A stretch of DNA of 64,000 nucleotides from positions 323,890 through 387,889 of the forward strand of contig MHKS01000005.1 in the NCBI GenBank assembly GCA_001818495.1, given 5' to 3'. How positions within the stretch are numbered: position 1 is the stretch's first letter; each line of letters opens with the position of its first letter. The stretch is from Candidatus Komeilibacteria bacterium RIFOXYD1_FULL_37_29. Lineage in GTDB: Bacteria > Patescibacteriota > Patescibacteriia > UBA1558 > GWA2-36-10. Shown here piece after piece: positions 8,735-50,092 of this stretch. A model generated the notes under the pieces. It worked only from the letters and a program-made list of their open reading frames with translations. It searched no databases and was not told the DNA's origin. The translations under genes were made by a program, and so were the position numbers.

Positions 8735-9484
8735 ATGTCAGAGAAAAAGTTAGATAATCAATTTGTCAGAGAGACTTATAATAAATTTTTATCCAATTAT
8801 GATAAGGGTTATTCTTATCATCGTTGGTTTAGAGAAGTGATATCCCGCTATCATTATAAGCAAAGTCGTCGCAGTTTTCTTTATGCCTTGCGAGATTCCA
8901 AGTATCAAAAAGCTTTGGAAATAGGTGGAGGAGACGGAGAGTGGACCAAGATTCTTTTAGATTATGCTGAGTCTATAGATTTTTATGATATTTCCGAAGA
9001 AATGATTAAACAAGCTAAAGCTCGCTTGATTGATAAAAAAAATGTCAATTTTATTTTGGGAGATTTTTTGGAAAATAAATTAGCCGATCAGAGTTATGAT
9101 TTTGTCTTGTCTTTTAGATCTTTTGAGTATTTTGATGATCAAGAAAAATTTTTAAAGGAAGTTTACCAACTTTTAAAAAATGGTGGGGAGATGATTCTGG
9201 TGACCAAAAGTCCTCATTATGATTGGACCAAATATTATCAAAGTAAAAAATTGCATTCAGGAATATTGCCCATTAACGATTTAATAGCTTTGTTTAGAAA
9301 ACATGGTTTTGAAATAGAATTGGTCAAACCGGCTATTTTAGGTAAGAAATTGAGCTGGTTAGGGGCTAGGTTTGTTTTTGATATTTTTCATCGTCAGAAT
9401 TATTGGTTTAAATTTAATCTATTGCCTTTGTTTTTACTAAGGTATATAGCGGAAAGTTTTATTATTAAAGTTGTCCGAAAATAA
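8735..9484 (+). CDS. Class I SAM-dependent methyltransferase (Methyltransf_11/12-like)
   Basis: ALEIGGGDGEWTKILL ... DFVLSFRSFEYFDD ... LLKNGGEMIL. Confidence 0.65.
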   Translation: MSEKKLDNQFVRETYNKFLSNYDKGYSYHRWFREVISRYHYKQSRRSFLYALRDSKYQKALEIGGGDGEWTKILLDYAESIDFYDISEEMIKQAKARLIDKKNVNFILGDFLENKLADQSYDFVLSFRSFEYFDDQEKFLKEVYQLLKNGGEMILVTKSPHYDWTKYYQSKKLHSGILPINDLIALFRKHGFEIELVKPAILGKKLSWLGARFVFDIFHRQNYWFKFNLLPLFLLRYIAESFIIKVVRK

Positions 9485-9486
9485 CT

Positions 9487-10101
9487 ATGATTATAGAGCT
9501 CTATGGTTTGTCGGGTAGCGGTAAATCAACACTAGCTAGGCGTTTGGTAGAAATTGACAGTGCAAAATTTGTGCTGGCGGATTTTTCCAATAAATTGGAA
9601 AGATATTTTTATTTGTTACTTTACCTAATAAATAATCCGGTCACTTTTACTAATTGGTTATTATTTTTATGGCAAAATAGAAAATTATTTAGCTATAAGT
9701 TGCATTTGCTATTTTTATCTATGGCCAAGCTACAGAAAGCTGTTTTGATAAAAGATAAAAAAGTTTTGTTAGATGAAGGATTATTACAGCGGGTTTTAAC
9801 TATTGCTGATAGTGAGATTGATAATCGGCTTTTGGATAAATTATTAAAACATCTGAATAAATTGGGACATTTGATTATCATGGAAGGCGGAGATTGGCAG
9901 CGTTTTGTAAAATATAGTAATAAAGAAAATAGCCCCCGAGTAAAAATGGGGCAGGAGTATTTGGAGTCTTGGCAGAATTTACAAAGCAAAAATAATGATA
10001 TTATAAAAAAATATCTGGCCCAAAAGCAGTCATTGAAAAAATATATTTATAATAAAGAAAACATAACGGCAGAAAAAGTGACCCTTGACTTGATTGATTG
10101 A
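9487..10101 (+). CDS. Small P-loop NTPase/kinase-like protein (Walker A GLSGSGKSTLA, identical to the adenylylsulfate-kinase P-loop; remainder unrecognised)
   Basis: Walker A at residues 7-17; no APS-kinase DGDN motif seen, so specific function unknown. Confidence 0.4.
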   Translation: MIIELYGLSGSGKSTLARRLVEIDSAKFVLADFSNKLERYFYLLLYLINNPVTFTNWLLFLWQNRKLFSYKLHLLFLSMAKLQKAVLIKDKKVLLDEGLLQRVLTIADSEIDNRLLDKLLKHLNKLGHLIIMEGGDWQRFVKYSNKENSPRVKMGQEYLESWQNLQSKNNDIIKKYLAQKQSLKKYIYNKENITAEKVTLDLID

Positions 10102-10126
10102 CTTATTTTTTGAAATAAAAAAATTA

Positions 10127-10165
10127 ACTCTCCACCAAACGGTTGTTCAGTGGAGAGTCTTTTTT
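10127..10165 (+). terminator. Intrinsic terminator (ACTCTCCAC-N14-GTGGAGAGT, then TTTTTT)
   Basis: 9-bp stem followed by a U-tract immediately after the stop of 9487..10101. The stem sequence is related to the terminator at 2344..2373. Confidence 0.65.
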
Positions 10166-10177
10166 GTAAGGAGCTTT

Positions 10178-10732
10178 TCATAGATGGTTCTGCAAATCGT
10201 GTAGAAAGTCATTCGCATAGGCTTCTTTGAGAGCATAGAGCTCTTGAGCTTCTGGTAGCAAACAATGGAATTTTCCTAGTACCTGTTCTTGTAGGTACTG
10301 AAGAGATTCTTCCAAGGTTTTACCAATAGCAACACCAGTGCAGAGCGTCTTTACGATGAGGAAGGTTTTACCGCCCTCTAATAGATGTGCATCATGGGCA
10401 ATTTTGCCTTCGATGCTGACAATGGTCTCAGCCGAGGTATTCTTTTCAGAATCCCAAGCTATTCTTATGACCAGATCAATGTTCCGCTTAGACATACCCT
10501 TAGACTGAAGAAAACTTATAATTGACTTTTCGCCGTTTTCCAAATGGATGACCCCATGGAAATATAGTGATAAGTTTATAAGCTTAAGATTAGCTTCCGG
10601 ATAGTTAGCGGCTAGTTCAAGCACTATCTTTTGGACGCGCTTAATGTGACCAAGGTCGTGCATGACATCCTTTATTATGTAATAGGGTCTCACGAAATTA
10701 ATCACAGCTCTTTCGGATGGAAATCTAGCCAC
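10178..10732 (-). CDS. HD-domain phosphohydrolase
   Basis: H...HD...D pattern (MHDLGHIKRVQKIV ... AHDAHLLEGG) typical of HD superfamily metal-dependent phosphohydrolases. It is the only minus-strand gene in this part of the locus. Confidence 0.55.
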   Translation of the reverse strand: MARFPSERAVINFVRPYYIIKDVMHDLGHIKRVQKIVLELAANYPEANLKLINLSLYFHGVIHLENGEKSIISFLQSKGMSKRNIDLVIRIAWDSEKNTSAETIVSIEGKIAHDAHLLEGGKTFLIVKTLCTGVAIGKTLEESLQYLQEQVLGKFHCLLPEAQELYALKEAYANDFLHDLQNHL

Positions 10733-43660: not shown

Positions 43661-44899
43661 ATGCTGAGATTAATCAATGCGTTTCAAATTGCTATAAAAG
43701 CCCTGACTAAAAATAAGATCAGAACTTTTTTGACTGTTTTGGGAGTTTTGGTAGGTATTTCTTCAGTTACTATTATTATCTCAGCCGGTGATAGTGTCGA
43801 GCAGTTGATATTTAAGCAGGTAGAAAGTTTTGGTTCCAACTATATCCAAACGGAAGTGCGGGTGCCAAAAGGTAGTGGTGGAACTATGTCCCAAGCGCAG
43901 GGGGTAGTTATTAGTACTTTAAAAGAAAAAGATCGTCAGGATTTTTTGGAGCTAGAAAATATAGATAAAGCTTACGGAGCAGTCATGACCCAAGATGTCA
44001 TCAGTTGGCAAGGCGAGCTCAATAAGGTCATGATTTATGGAGTGGGAGCAGATTATATTGATATCGATACTACGGAAGTAGATCAGGGAAGATTTTATAC
44101 CGAAGAAGAAGATAATAGTCTAGCTAGGGTAATAGTTTTGGGTTCCAAGGTCAAAGAGGATCTTTTTGGCGCTAGCGAGGCGATTGGTCAAAATGTTAAA
44201 ATAAATAAAACTAGCTTTAGGGTGGTCGGAGTGGCCAAACCGCGGGGAACAATTTTTACTTTTGATTTGGACGACATAGTTTATGTTCCGGTCCAAACCG
44301 CCCAAAAAGTTTTGATGGGTATTGATTACTTGTCGTCTATTACTTCGCAGATGAATGATTCTAGTCAAGAGGATGAAACAGCCGAACAAATGCGTCAGAT
44401 TTTGAGAGAGAACCATGATATTGATGATCCGACTAAAGATGATTTTGAAGTAATGTCATCGGCCGATGCCAAGGAATTGATGGGTACTATTTTAGGAGGA
44501 GTGACTATTCTTTTGGTGGTCTTGGCTGGCTTATCTTTGATTGTCGGTGGGGTGGGTATTATGAATATTATGTATGCTACAGTAGCAGAAAGAACTTTTG
44601 AAATAGGCCTCAGAAAAGCTGTCGGAGCTAGCCCCCAAAGTATTTTAACGCAGTTTTTGTTAGAGGCTATTACGATTACTTCTTTGGGGGGATTTTTTGG
44701 CATAATTTTAGGCATTATGGTTATTTATTTGGTTTATTTGATAGCCAATTATTATAATATGGATTGGCCTTTTGCTTTGTCCTGGAGCGGTATTTTACTG
44801 GCTATAGGGTTTTCTGTGGCCGTCGGGCTTATTTTTGGTCTTTATCCAGCTAAAAAAGCAGCCAATCTAGACCCCATTACAGCCCTGAGGAAGGAATAA
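43661..44899 (+). CDS. Second ABC transporter permease, FtsX/MacB-permease family (paralogue of the preceding gene)
   Basis: Same architecture; ~35-40% identical blocks (e.g. GIGIMNIM..VS.ER..EIGLRKAVGA). Confidence 0.75.
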   Translation: MLRLINAFQIAIKALTKNKIRTFLTVLGVLVGISSVTIIISAGDSVEQLIFKQVESFGSNYIQTEVRVPKGSGGTMSQAQGVVISTLKEKDRQDFLELENIDKAYGAVMTQDVISWQGELNKVMIYGVGADYIDIDTTEVDQGRFYTEEEDNSLARVIVLGSKVKEDLFGASEAIGQNVKINKTSFRVVGVAKPRGTIFTFDLDDIVYVPVQTAQKVLMGIDYLSSITSQMNDSSQEDETAEQMRQILRENHDIDDPTKDDFEVMSSADAKELMGTILGGVTILLVVLAGLSLIVGGVGIMNIMYATVAERTFEIGLRKAVGASPQSILTQFLLEAITITSLGGFFGIILGIMVIYLVYLIANYYNMDWPFALSWSGILLAIGFSVAVGLIFGLYPAKKAANLDPITALRKE

Positions 44900-44936
44900 A
44901 AGTAGCTCTAAAATTAATTGAAATAACATAGCCAAT

Positions 44937-44963
44937 TAGCACTCCTTGACGTCGAGTGCTAAT
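44937..44963 (+). promoter_or_regulatory. CIRCE operator (TTAGCACTC-N9-GAGTGCTAA), HrcA binding site, followed by -10 TATAAT at ~44968
   Basis: Perfect match to the CIRCE consensus inverted repeat with a 9-nt spacer, directly upstream of the hrcA-grpE-dnaK-dnaJ operon. Confidence 0.85.
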
Positions 44964-44983
44964 TTGTATATAATGGAATATAT

Positions 44984-45055
44984 ACCCCGTTAGAAATTGA
45001 AAGTAATTCATTGGACGGGGTAAAATATGAATAAATAGTATTTCTAACGGGGTAT
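44984..45055 (+). promoter_or_regulatory. 15-nt perfect inverted repeat (TACCCCGTTAGAAAT ... ATTTCTAACGGGGTA) in the hrcA 5'-UTR; the 3' arm overlaps the SD-like GGGG and the ATG. Candidate RNA thermometer or second operator.
   Basis: Arms at ~44984-44998 and ~45041-45055; an extra internal copy of ACGGGGTA at ~45016 could allow alternative pairing. Confidence 0.4.
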
Positions 45056-45713
45056 GGAAGATAGAGGACAAAAATTGTTAAAGGAAATTATTGATATATA
45101 CGTTAAAACCGCTCGACCGGTTGGTTCTTCTAACTTGGCTTTCAGTAAGAAGTTTGATTTATCTCCAGCTACTATCAGAAGTGCCATGGGTGAGTTGGAA
45201 GAACAGGGCTATATCGCCCAGCCGCATACTTCCGCTGGCCGGGTGCCGACCACCTTGGGTTATAAGTTTTATTTGGACAATTTGCTCAGTGTTAAAAATT
45301 TAAATGACAAAGAAAATAAAGAATTGTCTGATGCATATAACAAAGATATGCGCGATTTGGCTAAGCTCTTGGTAGCCAAGACAAATTTAGCGGCCATTGT
45401 CGGATTTTCTCCAAGCGATCTTTATTTTACCGGGTTATTCAATTTATTTTCTCAGCCGGAATTTGAAGATTATAAAATGGTTCTGTCCATGACCAAGGTG
45501 GTTGATTCTTTAGAAAAAGCTATGACCAGTATTTATCCGCAAATTAATAAGCCAATAGTTCTAATCGGTGAGGACAATCCTTTTAGCTCTGATTGTTCGG
45601 TGGCTATTACACCGCTTAAAGATGAAAAAGTTTTGGCAATCTTGGGCCCGATGCGCATGGATTATAATCGAGTCTTAGCTTTACTTGAAGAAACAGTCAG
45701 AATTATTAAATAA
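45054..45713 (+). CDS. hrcA: Heat-inducible transcription repressor HrcA (compact 219-aa form)
   Basis: N-terminal wHTH KLLKEIIDIYVKTARPVGSSNL...LSPATIRSAMGELEEQGYIAQPHTSAGRVPTTLGYKFY is highly HrcA-like; C-terminal ILGPMRMDY motif; CIRCE upstream. Confidence 0.7.
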   Translation: MEDRGQKLLKEIIDIYVKTARPVGSSNLAFSKKFDLSPATIRSAMGELEEQGYIAQPHTSAGRVPTTLGYKFYLDNLLSVKNLNDKENKELSDAYNKDMRDLAKLLVAKTNLAAIVGFSPSDLYFTGLFNLFSQPEFEDYKMVLSMTKVVDSLEKAMTSIYPQINKPIVLIGEDNPFSSDCSVAITPLKDEKVLAILGPMRMDYNRVLALLEETVRIIK

Positions 45714-45742: not shown

Positions 45743-46261
45743 ATGTCAGATAAAGATAAAAAAGATAAAGATAAGAAACATCAGAGCGAAAGTGGTGTTT
45801 CTAAAATTGAGCAAAAAATAGATTTTGCCCAGCAGGCGACAGAAAATTTGGCTGGCTGGCAAAAAGCCCTGGCTGATTATCAGAATTTACAAAAAGAAAT
45901 GGATAAGCGCTTGTCTGGTATGAACGATTTTGTGGCCGCTGGTATTATTTTGGATCTTTTGCCAATTTTTGATAATTATCAGATAGCCATTTCTCATATT
46001 CCCAAAGATCAAAAAAATCATTCTTGGGCTGTTGGTTTAGAGCATATCTTGAAGCTGTGGGCTACATTTTTGGCCGATTACGGAGTAGAAAAAATTCAAA
46101 CAATTGATCAAAAATTTAATCCGCATTTACATGAAACAGTTGGTGAGGTCAATAACCAAAATCAAGAAGATCAAATGATTGTCGAAGAAAAATTAGCTGG
46201 CTATAGCTCTAAAGATAGAGTGATTCGTCCGGCTAAAGTAATCATTAATAATAAAAATTAA
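45743..46261 (+). CDS. grpE: Nucleotide exchange factor GrpE
   Basis: Position in the hrcA-grpE-dnaK operon; coiled-coil N-terminus and C-terminal beta domain (...FNPHLHETVGEV...). Confidence 0.7.
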   Translation: MSDKDKKDKDKKHQSESGVSKIEQKIDFAQQATENLAGWQKALADYQNLQKEMDKRLSGMNDFVAAGIILDLLPIFDNYQIAISHIPKDQKNHSWAVGLEHILKLWATFLADYGVEKIQTIDQKFNPHLHETVGEVNNQNQEDQMIVEEKLAGYSSKDRVIRPAKVIINNKN

Positions 46262-46285
46262 TAATTAAAGAAAGGAGAAAACATT

Positions 46286-46684
46286 ATGTCACTTATACCA
46301 TGGAGTCCACTTTTAGACACCTTTGACTCTTTAGAAAAAGGGTTCAGCAATTTTTTGCCGGCTATGGATGTCTATGAAGAAAATGACAATGTAGTCGTTG
46401 AAGCTACTTTAGCCGGTATCAAGCCGGAAAATGTCAGCATCAATGTCCATGACGATGTTTTAACTTTGGAAGGTAAAAGGGAAACTTCTAGCGAAATAGA
46501 AGAGAAAAATTATTATCGCAAAGAAGTCAGAAGCGGATCATTTCATCGAGCGGTCGTCTTACCAGTAGCCGTCCAAGCTGACAAAGCTCAAGCTGATTTT
46601 GAAAACGGACTGCTTAAAATTATCTTGCCCAAGCAAGAAGAAGCTCGGTCAAAGAGTATTAAGATCAATGTAAATAAAAAATAA
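46286..46684 (+). CDS. Hsp20/alpha-crystallin family small heat-shock protein
   Basis: MDVYEENDNVVVEATLAGIKPENVSINVHDDVLTLEG...GSFHRAVVLP...ENGLLKIILPK is the ACD signature; strong RBS AAAGGAGAAAA. Confidence 0.8.
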   Translation: MSLIPWSPLLDTFDSLEKGFSNFLPAMDVYEENDNVVVEATLAGIKPENVSINVHDDVLTLEGKRETSSEIEEKNYYRKEVRSGSFHRAVVLPVAVQADKAQADFENGLLKIILPKQEEARSKSIKINVNKK

Positions 46685-47020
46685 ATGATAAGTAGTTTTA
46701 ATTCGCCACTTAATTTGCATTTAATCAAAAAATGTCCAATCTGTTCGGCTGATTATCAGCAGTCCAACGTTCAGGTTTTGGATGAAAATGAGCTTGGTAT
46801 TTTGACTTATGCCTCTTGTCTTAGTTGTCGGGCCAATCTTTTGACCAAATTCACCTCACTACCACAAGGGGTGATTGGTAATGCTATACTGACCGATTTG
46901 AGTCCACAGGAAGTTTTGGATTTTGCCAGTCAAAGCCCTATAGAAGCCGATGATGTTTTGGATATACAAACCATGCTGTCTAAAAAAGAGTTGATTAAGA
47001 ATTTTAAAAAATTAATATAA
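46685..47020 (+). CDS. Small hypothetical protein with CxxC...CxxC (zinc-ribbon-like) inside the heat-shock operon
   Basis: [10 protein letters not shown]...CLSCRANLL; its start overlaps the hsp20 stop; no known family recognised. Confidence 0.3.
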
Positions 47021-47030
47021 TTTAAAAAAT

Positions 47031-48929
47031 ATGGGAAAAATTATTGGAATTGACTTGGGCACCACCAACTCGGCTGTAGCGATAGTCGAGGGTGGCAAAC
47101 CAAAAATTTTGGAAAACAAAGAGGGTAATCGTACTACCCCATCAATAGTGGCTATTTCCAAAAACGGAGAGCGTTTGGTTGGCATTCCAGCCAAACGTCA
47201 GGCCGTCACCAATCCAGCCAACACTATTTTTTCAGTCAAAAGATTAATTGGCCGAAAGTATAATGACAGTGCCATTAAAAAGGATATTGAAACCGTACCT
47301 TATAAAATAGTGCAATCAGGAGAGGGTGTTAAAGTAAAAATGGGGGATAAAGAGCACACACCACAAGAGATATCAGCCATGATATTACAAAAAATAAAGG
47401 CTGATGCTGAAGAGAAATTGGGCGAACCAGTGACTGAGGCCGTGATTACTGTACCAGCCTATTTTGACGACAGCCAGCGTCAGGCTACCAAAGATGCCGG
47501 TAAAATTGCTGGTTTGGAAGTCAAGCGTATTATCAATGAGCCGACAGCCGCTGCTTTGGCCTATGGTTTTGATAAGAAAAAAGACCAGCAAGTTGTAGTC
47601 TATGATTTGGGTGGTGGTACTTTTGATGTGTCTATTTTGGATGTGTCAGCCGATACAGTAGAGGTCAAAGCTACCAATGGTGATACTCACTTAGGTGGTG
47701 ATGACTTTGATCAAATAGTAATTCATTGGATTTTGACCGAGTATAAAAAACAAGAAGGGATTGATTTGTCCAAAGATATTTTGGCTATGCAGAGACTCAA
47801 AGAATCGGCTGAAAGAGCCAAGATTGAGCTTTCTTCTTCTATGGAAACAGAAATCAATCAGCCTTTTATTACTACTGACGAATCAGGTCCTAAACACTTG
47901 GTTATGAAAATGACCAGGGCTAAATTGGAAGAACTAGTTGGTGACTTAGTTACCAAAACTTTAGAACCATGTCGCAAAGCTTTAGCTGACGCTAAGGTTA
48001 CTACCAAAGATATTGAAGAAGTGATTATGGTCGGTGGTATGACTAGGATGCCCTTGGTTCAAAAGAAAGTAGAAGAATTTTTTGGCAAAAAACCAAACAT
48101 ATCAGTTAACCCAGACGAAGTAGTAGCTTTGGGCGCCGCTGTTCAGGCCGGAGTACTACAGGGTGATGTCAAAGATGTTTTGCTTTTAGATGTTACTCCT
48201 TTGACCTTGGGTATTGAAACTATGGGCGGTATTCGGACACCATTGATTGAAAGAAATACCACTATTCCTACTTCTAAGTCTCAGATTTTTTCTACCGCCG
48301 CTGATAATCAAAACACCGTAGAAATTCATGTTTTACAAGGCGAGCGTCAAATGGCGGTTGATAACAAAACTCTGGGTCGTTTTACTTTGTCTGGTATTCC
48401 ACCCGCTCCACGCGGTATTCCACAGATTGAGGTCAGCTTTGATATTGATGCCAATGGTATTTTAAATGTGAAAGCCGTAGATAAGGCTACCAACAAAGAA
48501 CAATCCATTACCATCAAATCATCTTCTGGTTTGAGCGAAGCGGAAGTAGAAAAAATGAAAAAAGACGCCGAAGCTCACGCCGAGGAAGATAAAAATAAAA
48601 AAGCTGAAGTGGAAGTTAGAAATAATGCTGAAAATATTATCTTCCAAACCGAAAGATTTATCAAAGACAATAAGGATAAAATCAAAGAGGAAGATAAAAA
48701 GCAAATGGAAGAAAAGATGGAGGCTTTAAAGAAAGTCAAAGACAGTAAAGATTTGGAGATTGTCAAAGCCGCTGTTAAGGAGATGGAAGATGTTGTCCAA
48801 AAAATTGGTGCAGCTATGTATCAGCAACAGTCCCAAGCTCAATCAGATGCCGCTGGAGCAGCTGGTCCAAAAGACGACAAAGGTCCAGTGGAAGGAGATT
48901 TTGAAGAAGTAAAAGAAGACAAAAAATAA
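47031..48929 (+). CDS. dnaK: Molecular chaperone DnaK (Hsp70)
   Basis: [18 protein letters not shown] and the full Hsp70 length with its signatures. Confidence 0.95.
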
Positions 48930-48985
48930 TTAATATTTGATGAGTCTAACCCCTCGGCTTTGCTCGGGGGGTTACTCTAGTAACC

Positions 48986-50092
48986 ATGGCCAAAGATTAT
49001 TATAAAACATTAGGCGTTGATAAGACAGCTAGCGAAGCTGAGATTAAAAAAGCTTTTCGTAAACTGGCGCACCAGCATCATCCTGACAAAGCCAACGGCA
49101 ATGCCGATAAGTTTAAAGAAATAAATGAAGCTTATCAGGTTTTGTCCAACAAAGAAAAACGTCAAAACTATGATCAATTTGGTCAGGCTTTTGATGGTGC
49201 CTCCGGCGGTAATCCTTTTGGTTATGGCAGTCCCTTTGGTCAGGGCAATATGGGGGGCTTCGATTTTTCTGGTCAGAATATGGATTTTGATTTGGGGGAT
49301 TTATTTGGTCAATTTTTTGGCGGTGGAGCCCCTGGTGGCCGTTCTAGAAGCCAGAAAGGTGCTGATATCCAGGTTGATCTAGAAATAAGCCTTAAAGAGG
49401 CAGTTTTTGGCAAAACAGAGGTATTCTCTTTGCGTAAGCAAGTGGCTTGCCAGCCCTGTCACGGTACAGGGGCTGATAAAGGCACAGCCTATGAAAAGTG
49501 TTCTACTTGTGGCGGTAGTGGTAAAATTGCTACTACTGTCCTAGGTACTTTTCGTACCCAGACTATTTGTCCAGAGTGTCAGGGTAAAGGCAAAAGTATT
49601 AAAGAAAAATGTCGGGCTTGTTCGGGTAATGGTTTTAATGAAGAGCAAACTGATATCAGAGTGGAAATTCCCGCTGGTATTAATGACGGTCAAGCCGTGC
49701 GCTTGTCTGGTCAAGGCCATGCCGGAAAACATGGTGCTTCCGCCGGTGATTTGTATGTGACAGTCCGTGTCAAAGAAGAGCCAGGTTTTGTCCGTGAAGA
49801 CAACGACCTGATTAGTGAATATGATATTCCTTTTACTATGGCTACACTAGGAGGAGAAATGGAAATAAAAACTATTGATGGTCGAGTTAAGCTCAAGATT
49901 CCAGCTGGCACACCTAGTGGCAAGCAATTTGTCTTACGGGACAAAGGGGTTACTAATTTGCGTGGTAGAAGCAGGGGAGATCAGATTGTGATAGTCAATG
50001 TGGAGGTACCCAAGAAACTCAGTAAAAAACAAAGAGAATTATTGGAACAATTGGATCGGGAGTTTGATAGCAAGAAAAAGTCTTGGTTTTAG
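48986..50092 (+). CDS. dnaJ: Molecular chaperone DnaJ (type I: J-domain, G/F-rich region, four CxxCxGxG zinc repeats)
   Basis: HPD motif in the J domain (HQHHPDKA); G/F region; CQPCHGTG, CSTCGGSG, CPECQGKG and CRACSGNG. Confidence 0.9.
   Translation: MAKDYYKTLGVDKTASEAEIKKAFRKLAHQHHPDKANGNADKFKEINEAYQVLSNKEKRQNYDQFGQAFDGASGGNPFGYGSPFGQGNMGGFDFSGQNMDFDLGDLFGQFFGGGAPGGRSRSQKGADIQVDLEISLKEAVFGKTEVFSLRKQVACQPCHGTGADKGTAYEKCSTCGGSGKIATTVLGTFRTQTICPECQGKGKSIKEKCRACSGNGFNEEQTDIRVEIPAGINDGQAVRLSGQGHAGKHGASAGDLYVTVRVKEEPGFVREDNDLISEYDIPFTMATLGGEMEIKTIDGRVKLKIPAGTPSGKQFVLRDKGVTNLRGRSRGDQIVIVNVEVPKKLSKKQRELLEQLDREFDSKKKSWF

Follow-up and report, generated by a model that had tools for sequence, protein, structure and literature searches.

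A 68-nucleotide palindromic insertion, probably of the MITE type, at the start of a CIRCE-controlled hrcA gene in a Komeilibacteria genome

The 64-kb stretch of Candidatus Komeilibacteria bacterium RIFOXYD1_FULL_37_29 analysed here (64,000 nucleotides; hereafter the window) carries the repressor gene hrcA behind a controlling inverted repeat of chaperone expression (CIRCE), and a long inverted repeat lies between the operator and the gene and overlaps the start codon. A first-pass annotation had interpreted this repeat as a translational RNA thermometer. Our analysis suggested instead that the 16-bp repeat probably represents the ends of a 68-nt non-coding element of the MITE (miniature inverted-repeat transposable element) type, which was inserted in an ancestrally leaderless, CIRCE-controlled hrcA start, duplicating TATG and rebuilding the ATG. 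An attractive but wrong reading is thereby replaced by a testable one. The features of the locus are as follows, with the loci of relatives designated by L numbers throughout.

44936-44962, + strand: CIRCE operator TTAGCACTC-CTTGACGTC-GAGTGCTAA, the HrcA binding site (single perfect match)
44946-44951, + strand: -35 hexamer TTGACG within the CIRCE spacer (spacer TTGAC kept in all relatives)
44969-44974, + strand: -10 hexamer TATAAT, 17 nt from the -35 hexamer (kept in 24 related loci)
44981-44984, + strand: left copy of the 4-bp target duplication, now TATA, ancestrally TATG (empty site tataatggaataTATGgaag of L085 versus the filled site here)
44982, + strand: inferred transcription start site (TSS), the eighth base after the -10 hexamer, at which the stem begins; its homologue in leaderless relatives is the A of the ATG
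44985-45052, + strand: inserted palindromic MITE-like element, 68 nt (64.4 bits with the covariance model; filled and empty sites)
44985-44997, + strand: 5' terminal inverted repeat CCCCGTTAGAAAT (same arm found in relatives and phage contigs)
44997-45026, + strand: promoter-like match in the element, TTGAAA, 18 nt, TAAAAT, 10 of 12 positions (geometry not conserved in other copies)
45015-45022, + strand: internal ACGGGGTA copy, pairing with the 5' arm in a predicted alternative hairpin (-15.5 to -16.6 kcal/mol)
45027-45038, + strand: mini open reading frame (ORF) in the loop, ATG AAT AAA TAG (read from the sequence; function putative)
45040-45052, + strand: 3' terminal inverted repeat ATTTCTAACGGGG (perfect arm match)
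45053-45056, + strand: right copy of the target duplication, TATG, with the working hrcA start codon at 45054-45056 (sequence, relatives)
45054-45713, + strand: hrcA, 219 aa, winged helix-turn-helix (wHTH) and GAF-like domain, without the inserted dimerisation domain (Pfam HrcA match)

The insertion became apparent from the comparison of filled and empty sites. Sixty-eight metagenomic loci encoding close HrcA relatives yielded 21 distinct hrcA upstream regions, 15 of which were arranged as for a leaderless mRNA, with TTGAC inside the CIRCE spacer and the ATG 6-7 nt after TATAAT, and a further three carried unrelated leaders of 17-23 nt. A leader of about 80 nt occurred only in the window, L094 and L096; the element was present in 3 of the 21 regions and absent from 18, and the conservation of the untranslated region among relatives that the first-pass annotation had proposed as a test was therefore not observed. 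The nearest relatives of the window HrcA (81-84% protein identity) have exactly the same flanks as the window. Comparison of L085 (tataat-ggaata-TATG-gaag) with the window (tataat-ggaata-TATA-(68 nt)-TATG-gaag) thus identified the hairpin as a 68-nt insertion at 44985-45052 bounded by a 4-bp duplication, the two copies of which, TATA and TATG, differ by one change. This G-to-A change in the left copy removed the old 5'-terminal ATG. Nine independent assemblies with an identical HrcA protein shared an identical 161-nt upstream region, with no population polymorphism of the insertion among the nine, and the insertion is fixed in this population. In a neighbour-joining tree, the window HrcA was nested among leaderless genomes on a branch that was not elongated.

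The inserted sequence forms a long palindrome. The arms of the inverted repeat, at 44982-44997 and 45040-45055, are 100% complementary and 42 nt apart, the final two bases of the 3' arm being the A and T of the hrcA ATG at 45054; the repeat is thus perfect and overlaps the start codon as had been stated, its length being 16 nt rather than 15 bp. The RNA of 44980-45080 folded at -28.3 kcal/mol (z = -5.1), and none of 200 shuffled sequences folded as well. Bacterial MITEs are defined by terminal inverted repeats, a target duplication, the lack of a transposase and a long RNA stem-loop (PMC3184786), and the window element has arms of 13-16 nt round a short non-coding core, 68 nt in total.

The CIRCE, previously reported as perfect, indeed had no mismatches and was the unique match in the window (0 expected from shuffles), though its left edge lies at 44936, one base to the left of the earlier start, and its arms can be extended to 11 nt, spanning 44934-44964. 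The -10 box noted before the operon was likewise recovered, in a TTGACG-17 nt-TATAAT promoter matching at 11 of 12 positions. By homology with the leaderless relatives, the TSS would be 44982, and the 5' arm of the hairpin should thus be transcribed, as the thermometer proposal had presupposed. In Saccharibacteria and others, the CIRCE spacer likewise holds the -35 TTGAC, and TATAAT is separated from the ATG by 6 nt in most cases and by up to 9, and several Microgenomates-type loci have the -10 within the CIRCE spacer and the right CIRCE arm abutting the ATG. A profile search of genome contigs with the HrcA alignment, which returned only relatives of at most 43% identity, served this survey of HrcA and leaderless starts and not that of the hairpin. 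As far as can be judged from sequence, hrcA in Patescibacteria at large appears normally to lack a leader and to have its promoter integrated in the CIRCE operator; the -35 hexamer within the CIRCE spacer and the leaderless ancestral mRNA distinguish the system from HrcA-CIRCE of the Bacillus subtilis type. Literature searches on HrcA in the candidate phyla radiation (CPR), leaderless genes in Patescibacteria and MITEs in CPR returned nothing relevant.

These layouts were encountered in a range of loci. The upstream type with TATAAT, in which the CIRCE lies about 20 nt before the hrcA start, was seen in L003, L006, L008, L010, L013-L020, L022, L023 and L026, and in L038, L043 and L078 the CIRCE ends 0-1 nt before the hrcA ATG. 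In L127, which belongs to another lineage, an unrelated palindromic insertion of about 86 nt (gggaaaagtaatcc...ggattacttttcc) lies between the CIRCE and the hrcA ATG, and the CIRCE-to-ATG distance is 109 nt versus 22-23 nt in L126 and L129. The promoter/leader site of hrcA seems to be prone to palindromic insertions.

The window element is a member of a repeat family. A covariance model built from nine copies, found via an arm-sequence search of related loci, scored the window copy at 64.4 bits (next-best window site, 20 bits) and 11 copies in related loci at 47-76 bits, with no match over 470 kb of distant Patescibacteria and other loci. Copies stand before permease 1 (L161, L162), permease 2 (L081, L094/L162), hrcA (window, L094/L162, L096/L161) and grpE (L084/L168, L114). 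In all ten copies in Komeilibacteria-like operons, the last base is the A of the downstream ATG and the orientation is that of the gene, and the N-termini of the element-preceded genes agree with those of orthologues without the element. Clean 4-bp repeats flank the element at six sites besides the window copy; clean repeats are TGAA at L081 permease 2 and at L084 grpE (where the empty site of L085 and L086 is an overlapping TAATG), TGCG at permease 1 of both L161 and L162 (a site that is empty in the window), TTAG at L126, just upstream of the CIRCE of that locus, and TCAA at L130, in a divergent promoter region. Matching empty sites were found in relatives at the hrcA, grpE, permease 1 and permease 2 junctions. 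The copies of L126, L130, L175 and L177 do not abut a start codon.

Two further copies deserve mention. At L161 10661-10741, a decayed copy lies before grpE, of which the 3' end (TCTAACGGG + ATG) alone survives, the 5' arm having been lost; copies can thus erode while the start codon stays. The HrcA of L094/L162 (protein P0022) has a database length of 230 aa, which is explained by the gene caller having begun at an in-frame codon within the element; alignment places the start so that the true length is 219 aa.

The family extends to phage contigs. A scan of viral contigs for exact matches to both 12-nt arms detected the arms at five loci. The phage contigs concerned have 42-49% GC and contain ORFs matching the Mu transposase, Mu F-like and portal protein families. 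In L178, the element is bordered on one side by the stop codon of a 72-aa ORF rich in Cys and on the other by the ATG of a radical-SAM-type gene of 430 aa, and the junction (...TAAAATGAA/TCCCGTTAGAAAT...ATTTCTAACGGGA/TGAAACC, slashes marking the element boundaries) has an ATGAA/element/TGAA docking identical to that of the CPR copies, while the phage copies of L175 and L177 are those not adjoining a start codon. On this phage-classified contig, the 72-aa ORF (10223-10441, - strand) has a CxC-repeat Cys-rich tail, and together with the radical-SAM-like gene (8882-10174, - strand) it looks like a peptide-modification pair with the element between its members.

Compared with the bacterial MITEs Correia (CREE), ERIC and RUP, the element shares a size below 200 bp, terminal inverted repeats, a target duplication, the lack of an ORF, long RNA stem-loops and co-transcription with neighbours (PMC3184786). 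It differs from them in its 4-bp duplication (often TGAA), its apparently low copy number, its strong orientation bias, and its insertion into start codons at A/TGNN, where its own last base, an A, restores the ATG. In Correia, ERIC and RUP, a TA duplication is typical. Neisseria REP2 and Borrelia IR-A/IR-B also lie directly upstream of a gene, supply its ATG and have internal stem-loops near the 5' end (PMC3184786), but they bring a promoter and a ribosome-binding site, whereas the window element lacks a Shine-Dalgarno (SD) sequence at working distance, its promoter is doubtful, and its clear target duplications point to transposition. The simplest account of the location at start codons, as we infer it, combines a preferred target of four bases beginning with T (often TGAA), an A at the end of the element with which the ATG would be restored, and strong purging of insertions elsewhere; genes in these genomes are typically separated by only 0-5 nt. 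The family is a small one whose members can occupy start codons in genomes nearly devoid of intergenic DNA while leaving the gene intact.

Several observations nevertheless weigh against an origin as a MITE. No transposase with matching ends turned up in pattern scans spanning up to 600 nt (the element end that would be sought on a partner insertion sequence is YCCCGTTAGAAAT), to our knowledge no partner transposase is known, and a link between the element and the Mu-type transposase on the phage contig would be speculative. Four copies with the left end ACGTG or ACTTG (the ACGTG subfamily) show no clean duplication. The window holds one copy and 65 kb of other (uvrB) neighbourhoods of three relatives hold none, which suggests a low copy number per genome with clustering in the ABC-transporter/hrcA/grpE stretch; Komeilibacteria-type copies all lie within about 4 kb round hrcA, and about 158 kb sampled elsewhere in the same or in sister genomes contained none. 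L161 and L162 contain 2-3 copies within 3.5 kb, and one 30-kb phage contig contains three. Furthermore, of 15 copies 14 point the same way as the gene that follows, even though the element has symmetric termini, and the same-site copies of L161 and L162 (two sites) are 71-73% identical with intact arms, the 4-fold degenerate sites of these two genomes showing 30-42% identity versus 32% by chance, that is, saturated neutral divergence. Such an orientation bias and conservation are not predicted by a passive, decaying MITE. They could result from palindrome self-correction, repeated site-specific insertion or selection for RNA function.

Selection for RNA function would make the family a portable RNA device acting in cis, which docks on start codons and serves as a translational switch or coupler; this is the main rival reading, and we consider it possible though doubtful. 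With the long stem closed, the AUG would be masked. Its release would follow from pairing of the 5' arm with the internal G-run, or from melting of that arm by a ribosome arriving from upstream, whether engaged on the preceding gene, on the displaced original ATG or on the loop mini-ORF. Translation of the gene behind the element would in this way be coupled or tuned. In addition to the co-orientation and the conservation at saturated divergence described above, the ending of all ten Komeilibacteria-like operon copies on the A of the downstream ATG and the grouping of copies at four adjacent gene starts are consistent with such a device. An alternative 5' hairpin (-12 to -15.7 kcal/mol) was predicted in 8 of the 9 copies tested, being the minimum free energy fold in three, and a G-run equivalent to the internal ACGGGGTA was present in 8 of 9. 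In four copies, upstream ORFs of 8-16 codons run from the displaced original ATG across the 5' arm, and two copies have 10-codon loop ORFs that stop 4 nt before the main ATG. Across copies, the stem is 93% paired, with double changes in 8 of 16 pairs, a level that none of 500 shuffles reached. The clean target duplications, empty sites and phage-borne copies, however, indicate mobility, the four copies away from start codons do not fit, stem strength is widely spread (-8 to -30 kcal/mol), and the upstream ORFs are not conserved as peptides. The arms of a palindrome can also homogenise without RNA function, and among the stem mismatches no sense-strand wobble bias was seen (G.U versus C.A, about 6 versus 4). 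In its full form, this proposal envisages a previously undescribed start-codon-docking palindromic family, common to CPR bacteria and Mu-like phages, that inserts at A/TGNN and is retained as a mobile translational coupler or switch via two hairpins, layered on leaderless HrcA/CIRCE; we put it forward only tentatively, as rather unlikely overall. If the element were under selection, mobile DNA would be distributing a translational control module.

The thermometer proposal, in which the start would be covered by the stem at low temperature and exposed when heat shock melts it, adding translational control to HrcA/CIRCE, was assessed by partition-function folding at 20-85 °C with the TSS set at 44979, 44981 or 44983. 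The AUG and the adjacent G-run were fully paired in the predicted 5'-untranslated structure, a competing pairing partner exists in the internal ACGGGGTA copy, and related hairpins occur at hrcA in two other lineages and at grpE in three, as a thermometer would suggest. The stem was, however, predicted to stay closed throughout 20-85 °C for all three TSS settings. At 45 °C, neither the A nor the U of the AUG exceeded an unpaired probability of 0.06, and at 85 °C that of the G-run was still below 0.05. The third ACGGGGTA copy, offered earlier as an alternative pairing partner, is present, but with the 3' arm forced open the 5' arm/internal-copy hairpin reached -16.6 versus -28.5 kcal/mol, about 12 kcal/mol weaker (37 °C). 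RNA thermometers are short, imperfect helices melting at 30-45 °C; the window hairpin resembles ROSE, fourU and similar thermometers in placing a 5'-untranslated helix over the start region of a heat-shock gene, and differs from them in being a perfect 16-17-bp helix of about -28 kcal/mol that is not conserved at orthologous sites. Stem stability also varies among copies as described above, the element is found before non-heat-shock genes (ABC permease, radical-SAM) and in phage contigs, and an Rfam scan of 44850-45150 (E up to 10) returned only chance-level miRNA and sxy matches far below gathering scores. Given the stable predicted stem, its absence from most orthologous leaders and its presence at non-heat-shock genes, we rejected the thermometer, which we now regard as very improbable.

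The SD-like G-run that had been placed in the 3' arm does adjoin the ATG; it stops 1 nt before it and is thus not at a working SD distance. SD use is in any case rare in this genome. An SD-like motif precedes only 3 of the 43 long ORFs/genes of the window, hsp20 having a clear AAAGGAGA, and most gene starts of the window are preceded by A/T-rich sequence, often with intergenic gaps of only 0-5 nt. ATGAA is the start of 11 of the 43 genes. An alternative hrcA start, TTG at 45075 behind AGAGGA, was ruled out, as R4 is invariant in the family and the N-terminus agrees with relatives.

For an element inserted as a MITE, the most likely effect is that the hrcA AUG is masked at all times, regardless of temperature, with HrcA autoregulation acting as a buffer. 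The mRNA would start at the first stem base with a 72-nt leader, and the AUG would be locked in a very stable helix without a temperature response. Leaderless initiation would have been lost because the old 5' ATG is now ATA, and since SD-independent initiation needs an open start region, HrcA translation would be constantly low. Residual translation might proceed through transient opening of the stem, through co-transcriptional pairing of the 5' arm with the internal ACGGGGTA, or with the help of ribosomes translating the loop mini-ORF, whose start lies 4 nt past the internal ACGGGGTA copy and 6 nt past the G-run of that copy and whose stop codon, in frame with hrcA, precedes the 3' arm by 1 nt; RNase III cleavage is a putative further way of opening the stem. 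HrcA represses its own operon, and less HrcA means more operon transcription, which would make up in part for the reduced translation and render the insertion tolerable. A blunt stem at the 5' end may, in addition, lend stability to the operon mRNA.

Two DNA-level functions were considered as well. The element might act as a mobile promoter, its outward TTGAAA-18 nt-TAAAAT match giving rise to a CIRCE-independent, unstructured hrcA transcript without the 5' arm. The match agrees at 10 of 12 positions, a transcript from near 45033 was predicted to fold weakly (-3.6 kcal/mol), most copies have a TATAAA-like box after the internal G-run, and Correia and REP2 repeats provide precedents (PMC3184786 and general knowledge). 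Such matches are, however, at background frequency in AT-rich DNA (5 found versus 4.2 expected), and in other copies the distance from the -35-like to the -10-like box is inconsistent (13-21 nt), which renders a promoter function improbable. That the repeat is instead the DNA operator of a second regulator, a possibility raised with the original proposal, would fit the conservation among copies of the arm sequence itself, beyond complementarity. The arm spacing of 3 to 121 nt is nevertheless a misfit with a dimeric DNA-binding site, and most copies lie inside operons, away from promoters; we thus consider this reading scarcely credible. Separately, an integron attC site, which has R'' RYYYAAC at its 5' end, R' GTTRRRY at its 3' end and an integrase nearby, was rejected, as the core-site order here is reversed (GTTAGAA at 5', TTCTAAC at 3') and no integrase is present among the neighbouring genes.

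The encoded HrcA is compact. Its N-terminal winged helix, with the ATIRN...PHTSAGRIPT motif, gave a phmmer match to residues 16-128 of 1STZ (E = 2.7e-15), and the C-terminal GAF-like domain (Pfam PF01628) is present. Alignment with ten canonical HrcAs (336-350 aa), as the first-pass annotation had advised, showed the deleted region to be a single uninterrupted block of about 100 aa that falls between residues 118 and 119, leaving the wHTH, the GAF-like domain and the GPMRMDY end in place. We take the missing block to be the inserted dimerising domain of the 1STZ HrcA, a domain reportedly so named by Liu and co-workers in 2005. Its lack sets the window HrcA apart from HrcA-CIRCE systems of the Bacillus subtilis type and that of Thermotoga maritima (1STZ), and raises the question of how a repressor without the canonical dimerising domain binds an inverted repeat. 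The protein scored 166.2 bits, in two stretches, against the TIGR00331 equivalog cut-off of 197.2, and this sub-cut-off score explains the 'hypothetical' and 'DeoR' annotations. Homologues of 216-250 aa dominate the HrcA matches and span Saccharibacteria, Microgenomates, Peregrinibacteria, Kazan and others. The description as a minimal HrcA thus holds for its compactness and retained motifs, but judging from these homologues the compact protein is the norm across Patescibacteria and not a variant special to this genome. The window HrcA is 100% identical to a protein of Candidatus Komeilibacteria bacterium RIFOXYC1_FULL_37_11 (Patescibacteria/CPR).

The surrounding gene order on the + strand is HlyD-like, ABC ATPase, permease 1, permease 2, hrcA, grpE, hsp20, a 111-aa ORF, dnaK and dnaJ, so that hrcA is linked to grpE-dnaK-dnaJ as in an HrcA/CIRCE regulon. 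The part downstream of hrcA, assigned from the ORF list, family matches and relatives, is as follows.

45743-50092, + strand: rest of the operon, comprising grpE 45743-46261, hsp20 46286-46684, orf111 46685-47020, dnaK 47031-48929 and dnaJ 48986-50092

The 111-aa ORF between hsp20 and dnaK (46685-47020) contains CxxC...CxxC motifs and had no match in Pfam or NCBIfam, and its position is conserved in all relatives examined. Between dnaK and dnaJ, a GC-rich hairpin (TAACCCCTCG / CGGGGGGTTA, 48947-48974) lies 11 nt before the dnaJ ATG, and the same junction in relatives holds other GC-rich palindromes (L162 10771-10843, L168 4107-4172). A second, unrelated palindromic intergenic family of the TGTCATTC...GAATGACA type was found between hsp20, orf111 and dnaK in relatives (L162 8297-8400 and 8737-8853, L161 12023-12122, L168 1755-1846), the window gaps at these junctions being 0-10 nt. 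The junction of hrcA and grpE is filled by a third type of insert, which starts CCCTTCGAC...GCTCAGGG, in three lineages, L081 (2158-2208), L089 (1181-1252) and L094 (2158-2210), and in other lineages this junction is empty or overlapping (TAATG).

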